Below, in pieces: positions 26,410 through 41,208 of a stretch of DNA of 64,000 nucleotides. The notes beneath the pieces are model-generated. The model worked only from the letters and a program-made list of their open reading frames with translations, was not told where the DNA came from and made no database searches. The stretch is from a virus, in the IMG/VR virus record IMGVR_UViG_3300042375_000763, positions 1 to 64,000 of that record. One strand, given 5' to 3'. The first letter of the stretch is position 1; each line of letters opens with the position of its first letter. The position numbers and the translations under genes were made by a program.

Positions 26410-26725
26410 GATGCAACTTTTCTGTTTCTAGGTAAGTTGCCAACCCACAGTACTTATGCTGCTAGAGCAAAAGCCTTAGGTGCGAAATTTTCATTTGCAT
26501 TTCTTATTTTATTGCGTTAACCGAGCTTTCGCCGGGTAGCTCCATCCTGCCTAGTGCGCCTGTCGATCCTATTTATCGCCCAGCAAAGATACCGATCGTC
26601 TTGTTTACATAAACTTATCTCGCCATATGATAGCAATGCTTCATACATCCAAGGGTTCCATAAACTGACCGGTATCTGTGGTGGACGATTCGGGTACCGC
26701 CCCCGAGTCCAGAACGTGTTCAGTG
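26410..26725 (-). ncRNA. ssrA: Two-piece (circularly permuted) tmRNA
   Basis: Acceptor piece ends ...AATCGTCCACCA at 26679. Coding piece starts GGGCGATAAATAGGATCGAC at 26581. G3-U70 pair. Tag reading frame ANENFAPKAFALAA* at 26498-26454. Outer ends are approximate. Confidence 0.93.
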
Positions 26726-26743
26726 AATATCATCACTACATAG

Positions 26744-26968
26744 TTATTTATTACATCTTTTTAAATATGCTTCTTCAAAATCATATTCATGTACACAATT
26801 TTCGTGATTACCCCAGATACGATCAAAGTAACCATTATATACACTCATGATTTCTTTTTCGCGCCAAGAGTCCGGGATAAGATGACCTTTCACAATCCAG
26901 AAGTATCTATTGGCTTCTTTTAATTCAACCTCTGTCATATCTTCTTTGTTTTTCTTCTTCTGAATCAT
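26744..26968 (-). CDS. Hypothetical protein
   Basis: ORF track; FWIVKGHLIP. Confidence 0.55.
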   Translation of the reverse strand: MIQKKKNKEDMTEVELKEANRYFWIVKGHLIPDSWREKEIMSVYNGYFDRIWGNHENCVHEYDFEEAYLKRCNK

Positions 26969-27030
26969 GTCTAGGTTTATCAGCCATTTAATCCTCCAAC
27001 AATTTTGGAGTATTTATCTATCCAAGAAGT

Positions 27031-27813
27031 TTATAATTTCTCGTAGTGAAATTGTAAAATTTGTTGAACTATACTTTCAAAGTTATCTAGATGTAACATA
27101 TTAGGACCATCAGAAGGTGCATTATCAGGGTCGGGGTGTACTTCTAAAAAGAAATTAGAAACACCTATAGCGCTAGCAGCTCTACATAGACCTGGTACAT
27201 AATTACGATTACCAGAACTTGAATCTCCAGCGCCACCAGGTCTTTGAACAGAATGTGTAGCATCAAATACGAGTTTAGTATTAAAATTATCTAATATGTA
27301 TTGCATACCAGTAAAGTCAACTACTAGATTATTATAACCAAAACTAGTACCTCTTTCAGTTATCCAGACTTCTTTTGCAGATGCTGTTTTTGAAAGTATT
27401 CCTGAGATATCCCAAGGTGCCAGAAATTGACCTTTCTTGATATTTACTATTTTACCTGTTTCACAAGCAGCAAGTATTAAATCCGTTTGTCGACATAAAA
27501 ATGCAGGTATTTGTATTACATCAACAACATCTTTAATATAAGAAATATGATCTTGTTCATGAATATCTGTAACTATTTTAATATCTTGTAAATCTTGCTT
27601 TATTTTCTTAAAATCATCAATAGTCCTAGAAATACCTAGTCCTCTTTTACCATTTATACTTGTTCTATTTGCTTTATCAAAACTTGCTTTGAAATAATAA
27701 TCTATATTGTACTTACGGCATATATCAGAACAATGTTTTGCTATTTCTAATGATTGTTTTAAACTTTCGTGTTGACAAGGTCCTGCTATAATAATCATTA
27801 ATTTAAATTTCAC
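27031..27813 (-). CDS. kdsA: KDO-8-phosphate synthase
   Basis: KASFDKANRTS, QIPAFLCRQT, NIKKGQFL, ERG.SFGYNNLVVD, FDATHSVQ, SDGPNM. Confidence 0.95.
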   Translation of the reverse strand: MKFKLMIIIAGPCQHESLKQSLEIAKHCSDICRKYNIDYYFKASFDKANRTSINGKRGLGISRTIDDFKKIKQDLQDIKIVTDIHEQDHISYIKDVVDVIQIPAFLCRQTDLILAACETGKIVNIKKGQFLAPWDISGILSKTASAKEVWITERGTSFGYNNLVVDFTGMQYILDNFNTKLVFDATHSVQRPGGAGDSSSGNRNYVPGLCRAASAIGVSNFFLEVHPDPDNAPSDGPNMLHLDNFESIVQQILQFHYEKL

Positions 27814-28159
27814 TTCCTATACTTCGGCGGACAATATCATCATGATTAAATTCAGCCCAATATAATTCAAATGCAACACCATCTTCAAGTCCTTCAAATT
27901 GATGAATCTTGCCGGGTTTGACTTGTGTAAAATCACCTGGACCAAGAATAGTTTCATCAACCAAGCCTTTTTGATCAGCATCTTGCCATACACGAACTAG
28001 CATTTTACCAGATTCAACAAAGAATCCATTCCATTTAAATCTGTGTTCGTGTTCACTGCATTTAAATCCTGATTTAAATTCAATTCTATGAAACTCAAGA
28101 ACACCGTTTGCGTGTATTAATTCGGTATTTCCCCAAATTTTTCCAGCTTTTATACCCAT
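27803..28159 (-). CDS. Cupin-domain protein (sugar isomerase-like)
   Basis: CSEHEH..KWNGFFVESG...HQF. Confidence 0.75.
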   Translation of the reverse strand: MGIKAGKIWGNTELIHANGVLEFHRIEFKSGFKCSEHEHRFKWNGFFVESGKMLVRVWQDADQKGLVDETILGPGDFTQVKPGKIHQFEGLEDGVAFELYWAEFNHDDIVRRSIGSEI

Positions 28160-28239
28160 AAGAACCTCCATATAAAAATGAGAGGCTAACCATAGGCCTC
28201 TCACGGGTTTATTTATGGGAACCAAACCTTGTTATAGAA

Positions 28240-28827
28240 TCAGAATTGAAGGGCAAGCTTAAGATTTAGATTGGTTTCATCTGCACCAGTATCAAAGCTA
28301 TGTGCTACACTTGGTGTAAGTGCAATATTGTCACTAAGTGCGTAACGTGCGCCAGCTTCTACAGAACCACCTTCTTGTGTCCAATCGGTACTCGCATTCC
28401 AAGTATATGACACTTGACTGTAAGCAGAAAGTTTATCATTTACACGATAACCGACACCAACGGTAGGAGTGGCATCCCATGCACCTTCATTAGCGCCAGA
28501 TGCAATGGTATATTCAGCTTCAGCGGTACCGTATACATTCAATTGGCCGAAATTTTTGGAAAGGCCATATGCTGCGGTGAGTGTAATATCTTCTGATTGG
28601 ATACCATACTTTGCACCAAAAGTTAGATCAGCATCTGCACCCATTACGGAATATGGAAGTACGGTTACAGTAACTGAAAGATCATTAGCTTGACCAGCAG
28701 TCGAAGAAATTCCAAAAGTCATATTGTCGCGCTCAAGTACAAGATCGACGCTGTTATTTTCAAAATCGGCAGCAAATACAGCGGTAGAAGCTAGAACTAG
28801 CGCGGCGGTAAGGATAATAGTTTTCAT
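28240..28827 (-). CDS. Outer-membrane beta-barrel protein
   Basis: Signal peptide, amphipathic beta strands, C-terminal Phe (LKLALQF). Confidence 0.75.
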   Translation of the reverse strand: MKTIILTAALVLASTAVFAADFENNSVDLVLERDNMTFGISSTAGQANDLSVTVTVLPYSVMGADADLTFGAKYGIQSEDITLTAAYGLSKNFGQLNVYGTAEAEYTIASGANEGAWDATPTVGVGYRVNDKLSAYSQVSYTWNASTDWTQEGGSVEAGARYALSDNIALTPSVAHSFDTGADETNLNLKLALQF

Positions 28828-29291
28828 TTTATTTCTCTCCATTGTTTATTTTCTTCACGTGTAATACCAAAGACATATTGATCTTTGAGATCACCTTCTT
28901 TTGTCATAAAGGATTTCGTGATAGTACCTTCATGTTTCCATCCGATTCTCTCGGAAACTTTTACCATAGATTTTAGTGGTGTGATACCATATAATTTCAT
29001 TACCTTAGAATTATTAAAGATTAAATCAGTCAAGAATATACCTGCCTTTAGTGATTTTATAGGGCTATTGTTTTTTGCAAACATGTGTACTCTTGCAAGC
29101 CATTTTGTTTCCGGAACAATGTATAAGATAAAACCATCTTTTTCTAGAGGTAGTGATTTTCCACTCTTAATATCTTGTTCAATATCAACAAAAATATCAT
29201 CTTTTGTTTTTTCGGGTGCTTGAAATATCCATGGGTCAATTTGCTCGTAAATAATTTGAGCAACTTCTTTATTCAAAATTGTATTATTCAT
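28824..29291 (-). CDS. GNAT-like protein
   Basis: ERIGWKHEG...DQYVFGITR. Confidence 0.6.
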   Translation of the reverse strand: MNNTILNKEVAQIIYEQIDPWIFQAPEKTKDDIFVDIEQDIKSGKSLPLEKDGFILYIVPETKWLARVHMFAKNNSPIKSLKAGIFLTDLIFNNSKVMKLYGITPLKSMVKVSERIGWKHEGTITKSFMTKEGDLKDQYVFGITREENKQWREIK

Positions 29292-40286: not shown

Positions 40287-40363
40287 TGGTCCGTGTGGAG
40301 AGATTCGAACTCCCGACCCTCTGGTCCCAAACCAGATGCGCTACCAGGCTGCGCTACACACGG
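40287..40363 (-). tRNA. tRNA-Pro(UGG)
   Basis: Cloverleaf, G37. Confidence 0.93.
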
Positions 40364-40375
40364 ATAAACTTTATA

Positions 40376-40529
40376 ATTGAAAGAACGCTATAGGGTAATT
40401 AATCCTATTCGAGGACGCTGTTTGCAACCAACGTTTGATCCTAACTTTTGTGTTACAGATTCGAACTGTCCCTGCCAGCAAAGGCCGTGCATCCATTTAC
40501 ACCTTACGCTACTTGTCTGTTCCTTCAAT
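40376..40529 (-). ncRNA. tRNA-domain-containing ncRNA (manA-like), copy A
   Basis: Terminal stem, AAGTAGCG, D-like and T-like arms, AAAAGTTAGGATCA; homologous to 46077-46257. Confidence 0.6.
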
Positions 40530-40566
40530 AATAAAGTCTGTAATTTATTATGTTTATTTTTCTAAA

Positions 40567-40580
40567 TTGTCAAAGAGCGG
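40567..40580 (-). promoter_or_regulatory. boxA-like antitermination site
   Basis: CCGCTCTTTGACAA just downstream of a promoter; also at 44137-44148, 46639-46652, 47322-47334. Confidence 0.7.
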
Positions 40581-40616
40581 TTATTAAGTTTACCATATAC
40601 TGATTCTGTGTGTTTG

Positions 40617-40922
40617 TCAACCGAAAAGTTGTTCGGTAATCACGTTAATTTCCTTCGAAGATTGCTTACGAGCTTTACCTTCAAGAGAAGCATCATAGTC
40701 TTTGTAAGCAACTTCAACCTTATAACCAAGTTCATCACCTGATTGTTCACCGATAAACATCATTTCATAAAGACATTTGACGGTGACTTTCAGACTTTCT
40801 TTAGAACCATCATGAGACATTTCCATGATATTGGCGACCGATCTACGACCGTCTTCATCAGACTCAATCCAAAGTACACGGATTGCAGTATCGGAAGCTT
40901 TTTCGAAGATGTATTGGTTCAT
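40617..40922 (-). CDS. Hypothetical early protein
   Basis: Early promoter and SD. Confidence 0.6.
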   Translation of the reverse strand: MNQYIFEKASDTAIRVLWIESDEDGRRSVANIMEMSHDGSKESLKVTVKCLYEMMFIGEQSGDELGYKVEVAYKDYDASLEGKARKQSSKEINVITEQLFG

Positions 40923-40987
40923 GTTCGGTTCCTTTCCTTATATAATCAATATATACTGATTCTGTAAGGATGTCAACCATTATTTTT

Positions 40988-41208
40988 CTGGATCAACTTT
41001 TTGCGTAACCTGCTCTACTACCTGAGCTACTCTCCCATCAAAGATACTGCACGCTAGTTTATACCCAATTGTCTCGCCATATAAGCCTATTAATATCTTA
41101 TACAAGAAAGGTTGTCATAAACTAACAGTATCCGTGGTGGGAGAGGAAGGATTTGAACCTCCGACACGGCCCATTTCAAGGATGCTAATTTGTTGCTGTA
41201 ATGATCCA
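40988..41208 (-). ncRNA. Clamp-motif RNA copy 6: permuted tRNA-Phe-like RNA with a 98-nt intervening hairpin
   Basis: TTGAAAT-GGGCC-GTGTC-T-arm-CTCTCCC-ACCA, insert at 41037-41134, GGGAGAG-D-arm. Confidence 0.75.

Follow-up and report, generated by a model that had tools for sequence, protein, structure and literature searches.

How does one RNA segment come to lie inside two different stable-RNA genes of the same phage? The question is raised by the window analyzed here, a 64,000-nucleotide stretch (positions 1 to 64,000) of the 80,190-bp IMG/VR virus record IMGVR_UViG_3300042375_000763, whose estimated completeness is about 40%. The window holds a permuted transfer-messenger RNA (tmRNA) gene and a permuted tRNA-Phe gene, each with its 3' part upstream of its 5' part, and in both an intervening sequence (IVS) of nearly 100 nt separates the two parts. 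We refer to the tmRNA spacer as IVS-1, to the tRNA-Phe spacer as IVS-2 and to their common type as type A. A sequence-only reading had proposed that they are copies of a conserved passenger RNA, either a functional small RNA released by RNase P and 3' processing or a mobile hairpin that creates permuted genes. We found that the two spacers share position, geometry and fold and are homologous, that type A is an island of conservation in the tmRNA genes that carry it, and that the interiors of such spacers turn over like cassettes. Our preferred explanation, to which we give an even chance, is that type A is an exchangeable structured cassette that sits in a processing slot and is exchanged by recombination, without an obligatory function in trans.

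IVS-1 begins directly after ...GTCCACCA and stops before GGGCGAT, giving the flank pattern ATCGTCC-A-CCA / GGGCGAT. The surrounding gene belongs to the alphaproteobacterial two-piece type: ARAGORN reported it as tmRNA* with the tag ANENFAPKAFALAA, and it scored 104.7 bits with RF01849 (cut-off 50) and 95.3 bits with RF04321 (cut-off 47). Furthermore, GGGCGAT and ATCGTCC form an acceptor with a G3:U70 pair of the alanine type. With its acceptor piece upstream of the coding piece, a tag open reading frame (ORF), this G3:U70 pair and a spacer between CCA and G+1, the gene is a permuted tmRNA. By analogy, IVS-1 would be removed from the tmRNA precursor by tRNA-processing enzymes.

IVS-2 occupies the same place in a different gene, being preceded by CTCTCCC-A-CCA and followed by GGGAGAG. 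For comparison we used permuted tRNAs from other viral records, namely L216 (complete, 283 kb), L217 (318 kb), L218, L206 (two genes, a and b) and L172. Joining G28 to U29 yields a canonical 76-nt tRNA-Phe(GAA) cloverleaf, likewise in the orthologues L217 and L218, and we therefore regard the host of IVS-2 as a genuine circularly permuted gene. The acceptor pairs covary across the spacer (GGGAGAG/CTCTCCC versus GGGGAAG/CTTCCCC), and covariation in both acceptor and T stem was seen in the orthologues L217, L218 and L206a. The clamp formed by leader and trailer covaries as well: GGATCA/TGATCC is replaced by GGGTCA/TGACCC in L206a and by GGATGG/CCATCC in the element at 38237-38298. A 3-4-3 bulge-helix-bulge (BHB) was seen neither by eye nor in the minimum free energy folds of five related clamp elements, a set that excludes the tRNA-Phe element itself and to which no dedicated BHB search was applied; these elements showed only the covarying 6-bp clamp with loops. 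Both the permuted nature of the tRNA gene and the placement of the two copies exactly between an encoded CCA and the +1 G of an acceptor stem, as first proposed, are borne out to the nucleotide.

Aligned globally, IVS-1 and IVS-2 are identical at 70 of 101 positions, with a score of 34 compared to -5.8 ± 4.4 for 2000 dinucleotide shuffles (z = 9.0). Because the ends of the spacers are conserved family-wide, we repeated the test on the interior alone, after removal of the outer stem and the flanks, and obtained z = 8.3. The two segments are thus homologous from end to end, in agreement with the initial proposal. Additionally, IVS-2 was aligned with some 70 further phage spacers; ranks 1 to 3 went to the type-A spacers of the three tmRNAs (scores of 24, 22 and 17), and the remaining spacers had a mean of 4.4, a standard deviation of 2.3 and a maximum of 12. 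At E ≤ 0.01 a blastn-short comparison of interiors failed to connect IVS-1 with IVS-2, whereas the global alignment tests did connect them.

For each spacer a single long, irregular hairpin of about 35 bp is predicted, with folding energies of -28.6 kcal/mol for IVS-1 (z = -3.2) and -24.8 kcal/mol for IVS-2 (z = -2.6), and 96% of the cells pair in an alignment of four distinct type-A copies. The compensatory change described earlier in the outer stem (GATACCG/CGGTATC versus GATACTG/CAGTATC, columns 14/95) is real, and three others were found at columns 28/76, 30/74 and 43/59. All four both-sided changes distinguish IVS-2 from the tmRNA copies; 3 of 500 shuffles reached this number, and slid controls gave 0 to 1. 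Since they come from a single diverged copy, we take these changes as moderate rather than strong evidence that the hairpin has been kept. Conservation between IVS-1 and IVS-2 follows the stems and the apical loop differs, a pattern more in keeping with a structural than with an antisense role.

A covariance model of type A (R1) gave 75 bits at IVS-2. In the 80-kb record it found just the two slot copies, and type A is therefore not a dispersed element. One further copy was detected in genome G001 and none in G004, G005 and G006, and pattern scans of IMG/VR and of metagenomes returned type A in tmRNA slots only. Over 20 to 50 kb, no Rfam model other than those of tmRNA matched at E ≤ 1, and focused scans of the spacers at E ≤ 10 gave either nothing or a chance-level match to BsrF (11 bits, E = 6). 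Neither a third or free-standing copy nor an Rfam family, for which the sequence-only reading had suggested a search, thus emerged.

Three other roles for the spacers were considered and rejected. A promoter for the downstream piece is not indicated, the copies being devoid of consistent -35/-10 or TATAAATA boxes. As to coding potential, ATG frames of 6 codons occur at the same place in both copies without a ribosome-binding site (RBS). A Y-RNA/Ro60 system finds no counterpart, the TROVE gene being absent from 5 records.

Conservation was then judged among relatives. Pattern scans retrieved the same spacer as in the window's own phage (L236) from L008/L009 (IMG/VR) and from L234, a 141-kb metagenome contig; the flanking genes of these phages are 66 to 71% identical to those of the window. 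IVS-1 is 98% identical to the spacer of L234 and 93% identical to that of L008. Between the window and L008, the spacer (92.8%) is much better conserved than the acceptor piece (68.9%) and the coding piece (62.8%), and between the window and L234 the corresponding values are 97.9%, 100% and 73.3%; in both pairs that involve L008 the acceptor piece is about 69% identical. The difference in identity between the spacer and the mature parts of the tmRNA is significant (Fisher p = 2.7e-8). The acceptor strands adjoining the spacer have different letters at most positions in the window and in L008; the island of identity therefore stops where the spacer itself stops. Better conserved than the surrounding mature tmRNA in three phages, type A is thus not an ordinary drifting, disposable spacer. 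In the comparison with L234 the tmRNA gene is a mosaic (window 26400-26760, L234 4140-4520): identity is 98 to 100% from the acceptor piece through the spacer into the start of the coding piece and about 73% from there on, which points to a recombination breakpoint inside the gene. The equally related phages L245 and L246 carry unrelated tmRNA spacers. Conservation in related phages, as predicted at the outset, therefore holds for three tmRNA genes and fails for equally related ones. Upstream of the tmRNA gene, the relatives have a TATAAATA-like box.

To place type A among spacers in general, a T-arm scan for tmRNA was used, which recovered 112 viral loci with 82 distinct spacers of 14 to 260 nt. 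Of 80 phage tmRNA spacers, 76 have an outer stem of 5 bp or more (8 to 12 bp in most); it begins 1 nt past CCA in 50 and stops 5 nt short of G+1 in 48 of the 80. All six permuted-tRNA spacers have the same geometry of 1 nt, a 9- to 12-bp clamp and 5 nt. The ends follow the consensus YRGATACA...TGTATCTTTGMT, and the 5-nt leader before G+1 is U-rich (UUGMU), with U at -1. Given this fixed geometry, the acceptor stem and the clamp enclose an internal loop of about 5x5 that contains both maturation sites. We looked for a host origin of the GATAC clamp by scanning one genome per species from 185,579 bacterial and archaeal species and rejected it, as the only true match was a phage-like contig. This 14-kb contig of a metagenome-assembled genome (L257; FZLS01000066.1, Rhodobacteraceae bacterium Water_Bin34) carries a phage-type tmRNA, the GATAC clamp and a T4-late-like TATAAATA-like upstream box, and is probably a phage contig misbinned into a bacterial genome.

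In contrast to the ends, most interiors of the spacers have no relationship to one another, 54 being singletons beside a few small clusters. The tmRNA spacers of L019, L018, L046, L104, L068, L075, L116 and others start with an AAAGGAG-type RBS and contain an ATG frame, and those of L091, L078 and L157 contain T-arm-like GGTTCAAATCC hairpins. Natural spacers can also be short, at 28 to 32 nt, as in L064 (28 nt) and L172. We compared all pairs of phage tmRNA genes. Among pairs whose mature parts are ≥90% identical, 21 of 34 have unrelated interiors, and conversely 6 pairs with 70 to 80% mature identity have interiors that are ≥85% identical; the intermediate class of 70 to 85% interior identity is almost empty. 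Such a bimodal distribution implies that interiors are replaced as units, and these alignments show the slot interior as evolving by apparent cassette exchange rather than by drift. The permuted tRNAs behave similarly. The orthologues of the window's tRNA-Phe carry other interiors, of 64 nt in L206a, of 65 nt in L216 and of a branched 104-nt type (type B) in L217 and L218. Between the orthologues L217 and L218, whose tRNAs are 96% identical, type B shows 78% identity, and between L217 and L206b, whose tRNA is not orthologous, it shows 81%. A conserved passenger of permuted genes in general, which the first description suggested, is not what we found, given these tRNA-Phe spacers and the unrelated tmRNA spacers of L245 and L246. 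Within G004, as within G005, the interior of the permuted-tRNA spacer bears no relation to that of the tmRNA spacer, and the sharing of a spacer within one genome is therefore special to this window. The IVS-1/IVS-2 pair is itself a rare intermediate case of interior identity: IVS-2 may be either an old copy in which the fold was kept or a copy received from a diverged donor.

We thus propose the following course of events. In the precursor, judging from established tRNA and tmRNA maturation, the clamp would keep the distant acceptor strands together, so that RNase P could act at G+1 and a 3' nuclease at the CCA end. RNase P is known to prefer a U at -1. The interior would then be cut out as a closed hairpin with a 5-nt 3' tail and would take no part in the mature RNA, so that a cassette need only fold inertly and stably. 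The mosaic patterns suggest that exchange takes place by recombination through the conserved 13- to 16-nt clamp/flank sequences (CCACCA-YRGATAC and GTATCTTTGMTGGG), the partners being either co-infecting phages or the two slots of one genome. In this way a type-A copy may have entered the tRNA-Phe slot and subsequently diverged by 30% with its hairpin kept.

Several points weigh against this proposal. Of a spacer that need only be inert one would expect drift, whereas no part of three tmRNA genes is conserved as well as type A; recent transfer may be the cause, but selection at the sequence level would explain the conservation equally well. The inner helix has been maintained too, beyond what a short clamp would need, as seen from the four compensatory pairs and the 96% pairing, and natural spacers of 28 nt suffice. 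Those compensatory changes, for their part, all derive from IVS-2. Finally, the cleavage by nucleases, the precursor and the product of the slot are predicted by analogy, and the route of recombination is deduced from mosaic patterns.

The same conservation of sequence, and of structure across 30% divergence, would be expected if type A were a passenger small RNA, released 1:1 with tmRNA and tRNA-Phe by RNase P and 3'-end processing and persisting with a function of its own, for example as a protein-binding decoy or as a regulator during infection, with the two slots raising or timing its dose. The predicted product, a closed hairpin of about 35 bp with a 3' tail of a mere 5 nt, would be a poor exonuclease substrate. 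RNase R and PNPase require longer single-stranded 3' tails, and it is because the short tail would suit neither enzyme that we retain this explanation as a tentative possibility. In other phages, moreover, the same slot bears ORFs with RBS and ATG. Against a passenger RNA stand the equally related phages that do without type A and have unrelated sequences in their slots, the lack of an Rfam family and of a third or free-standing copy in the searches described above, and the apical loop, the usual antisense seed, which differs between the two copies. A broader version, in which the CCA/G+1 slot of permuted phage RNA genes would be a general expression platform and type A a noncoding cargo with a function in trans (a stable protein-binding hairpin) that uses two slots and is passed on as a unit, strikes us as conceivable, though rather doubtful.

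Alternatively, type A could be a mobile and selfish module, in that the hairpin itself or a nuclease directed at the slot would target the CCA/G+1 joint and bring about spread by homing or site-specific insertion; in the strong form, it would create permuted genes. The sharp islands of identity bounded by the clamp, the bimodal identity and the finding of one cassette in genes that are not orthologous (tmRNA and tRNA-Phe for type A, two permuted tRNAs for type B) all speak for movement between genes, and this part of the mobile-hairpin proposal stands. Creation of the permuted genes does not. Indeed, the window contains a permuted tRNA at 45010-45134 whose spacer has only 8 nt and no hairpin, and together with the slots of 28 to 32 nt this means that the hairpin is neither required for permutation nor its cause. 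Selfish spread also has to be reconciled with the mere two copies in 80 kb of the phage's own genome and none in G004, G005 and G006. Neither locus is adjoined by an endonuclease gene, no target-site duplication or terminal repeats were seen beyond the clamp, and ordinary homologous recombination through the conserved flanks would be sufficient. We therefore consider a selfish module unlikely. A relationship of the whole genes, one having arisen from a duplicate of the other, or a chance likeness, as the shared CCA/G+1 context and family-wide clamp motif might suggest, is for practical purposes already refuted by the shuffle tests on full length and interior and by the comparison of orthologues, as the mature parts resemble each other only in generic tRNA shape (T arms, acceptor stems and D regions differ) and the tRNA-Phe orthologues carry other spacers.

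How does this arrangement relate to known systems? Two-piece tmRNA genes reportedly contain an intervening sequence, the work being attributed to Keiler, Shapiro and Williams in 2000 and to Sharkady and Williams in 2004. IVS-1 resembles such spacers in its place, with the CCA position on one side and the 5' end of the tRNA-like domain on the other. It differs from them in its fixed clamp geometry, with a GATAC-type clamp found only in phage-type genes, and in an interior that recurs in a tRNA gene and whose conservation in three phages exceeds that of the mature RNA. Unusual contents of tmRNA spacers are on record, namely a tRNA-Ala gene and a repetitive element (PMC11915505). Phage two-piece tmRNAs are known from aquatic T4-like myophages, including the OM43 phage Melnitz and pelagimyophages (PMC9004378), which appear to share with the window's phage a large T4-like genome and a permuted ssrA of alphaproteobacterial type. 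In its account of ssrA, that paper places a glutamine riboswitch in the 3' domain; the spacer between the pieces is not treated there and the word "intervening" is not used.

The tRNA-Phe gene is similar to the permuted tRNA genes of algae in that the 3' half lies upstream of the 5' half, the leader pairs with the trailer, and an intervening sequence, removed in algae by RNase P and a 3' nuclease, joins the CCA/3' end to position 1. Circularly permuted tRNA genes are said to have been described in Cyanidioschyzon merolae by Soma et al. in 2007. The genes differ in that ours belongs to a phage of bacteria, encodes CCA, is interrupted at 28/29 in the anticodon stem and has a 6-bp leader/trailer clamp with a conserved CAGCAA and no BHB recognizable by eye. 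The algal genes are nuclear, do not encode CCA and depend on a BHB motif, a splicing endonuclease and a circular intermediate (PMC3978253). No bacterial or phage permuted tRNA is mentioned in that review (PMC3978253), and we found none in the literature, nor any report of a spacer common to a tmRNA and a tRNA.

The predicted hairpins also recall the processing stems of RNase III. In rRNA operons and at the R sites of phage T7, such stems are long irregular helices that flank the ends of stable RNAs. Type A is likewise a long irregular helix next to a stable RNA end that would be removed during maturation, and about 35 bp with small internal loops are within the substrate range. Type A has no sequence family in common with these stems, however, and many of the slots described here have clamps that are too short or interiors that are too branched (type B) for classical RNase III sites.

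Spacers of two-piece tmRNAs are usually treated as throw-away sequences, and permuted tRNA genes have been described only from algal nuclei and related cases. Here a single phage lineage builds its tmRNA and its permuted tRNAs on one clamp-and-slot design, with the same structured cargo in both, and two kinds of permuted gene are thereby linked through one maturation design. This provides a testable case of whether phages use the processing of stable RNAs to deliver extra RNAs. Should the hairpin be stable and functional, it would represent a new route of small-RNA biogenesis in bacteria; should it not be functional, it would be a clean natural example of the tolerance of a permuted precursor for its spacer.

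The features of the two host genes and of the surrounding RNA cluster are collected in Table 1.

Table 1. Permuted RNA genes, clamp elements and neighboring features of the window
Feature	Position	Strand	Description
tmRNA coding piece	26363..26581	-	From G+1 (GGGCGAT), tag ORF ANENFAPKAFALAA; ARAGORN, Rfam
IVS-1, type-A spacer hairpin of permuted tmRNA	26582..26678	-	97 nt; one nucleotide between CCA and clamp stem, irregular inner helix, UUGCU leader (5 nt) ahead of G+1
tmRNA acceptor piece	26679..26774	-	P2 strand, T arm, acceptor 3' strand ATCGTCC, A, CCA; ARAGORN, RF01849/RF04321 alignments
DAHP/KDO8P-synthase family gene	27031-27813	-	
Ornithine/DAP/arginine decarboxylase gene	31823-32953	-	
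tRNA with anticodon CUA	36591-36666	-	
tRNA-like gene	38031-38133	-	103 nt
Further clamp elements (GGATCA-NTN-CAGCAA ... TGATCC)	39995-40105, 38931-38987, 38312-38388, 38237-38298	-	
Trailer of permuted tRNA-Phe	40990..41008	-	Ends in clamp 3' strand TGATCC
Permuted tRNA-Phe 5' part, positions 1-28	41009..41036	-	Acceptor 5' strand GGGAGAG, D arm, G27 G28
IVS-2, type-A-like spacer hairpin of permuted tRNA-Phe	41037..41134	-	98 nt; 1 nt, clamp, 5-nt UUGAU
Permuted tRNA-Phe 3' part, positions 29-76	41135..41182	-	Upstream of 5' part; anticodon loop UUGAAAU, variable loop, T arm, acceptor 3' strand, ACCA
Leader of permuted tRNA-Phe	41183..41207	-	Clamp 5' strand GGATCA and conserved CAGCAA motif
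Second permuted tRNA, same GGATCA...TGATCC clamp	45010..45134	-	8-nt spacer TACACTGA between CCA and position 1

In the second permuted tRNA the junction is also at 28/29, with a C1-G72 acceptor and an encoded ACCA, and ARAGORN identified the re-joined molecule as tRNA-Arg(UCG). One of the four further clamp elements combines a T arm and a D arm with an acceptor-like stem that is closed and imperfect, and it lacks CCA; the other three are "empty" elements of 57 to 77 nt. On its minus strand the 80-kb record has 7 occurrences of the clamp-element motif, compared to none in a reversed control. Several clamp or permuted-tRNA elements are also present in the jumbo phages G005 (the complete L216 record of 282,855 bp) and G006. 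Each of these two encodes one RNA ligase of the Rnl1 type (the tRNA-repair type), and Rnl2-type ligases number two in G005 and one in G006; these enzymes are candidates for joining the tRNA halves. None of Rnl1, Rnl2 and RtcB was found in the window's own 80-kb record. Joining by RtcB was rejected for this lineage, the enzyme being absent from G000 and G004 to G006 and present only in the unrelated G007. This 70-kb virus record (L172), from a different phage type, has at least two permuted tRNAs with spacers of 32 and about 42 nt in the same clamp geometry, and its RtcB gene lies at 39646-40638.

Among cultured phages (INPHARED) the tmRNA locus had no match, and the permuted tRNA gave a trivial T-arm match only. 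A search for RNA sequencing runs covering 31400-41300 returned none. Of the searches by pattern, an initial regular expression for permuted tRNAs returned unrelated tRNA arrays only, and with the first IMG/VR pattern 8 of 10 matches lay away from any tRNA or tmRNA and were counted as chance.

The window encodes T4-type topoisomerase II subunits and a DnaB-like helicase, and its phage is a large T4-like one. By ARAGORN, the minus strand carries about 30 tRNA genes in addition to the permuted tmRNA. The tRNA cluster includes an amber suppressor tRNA (anticodon CUA), which ARAGORN labels Pyl, and the 103-nt tRNA-like gene, detected by Rfam only (41 bits), which has good acceptor, D and T arms and some 30 surplus bases in the anticodon or variable region. 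Beside the RNA cluster lie two auxiliary metabolic genes, one for a DAHP/KDO8P-synthase family protein and one for an ornithine/DAP/arginine decarboxylase.

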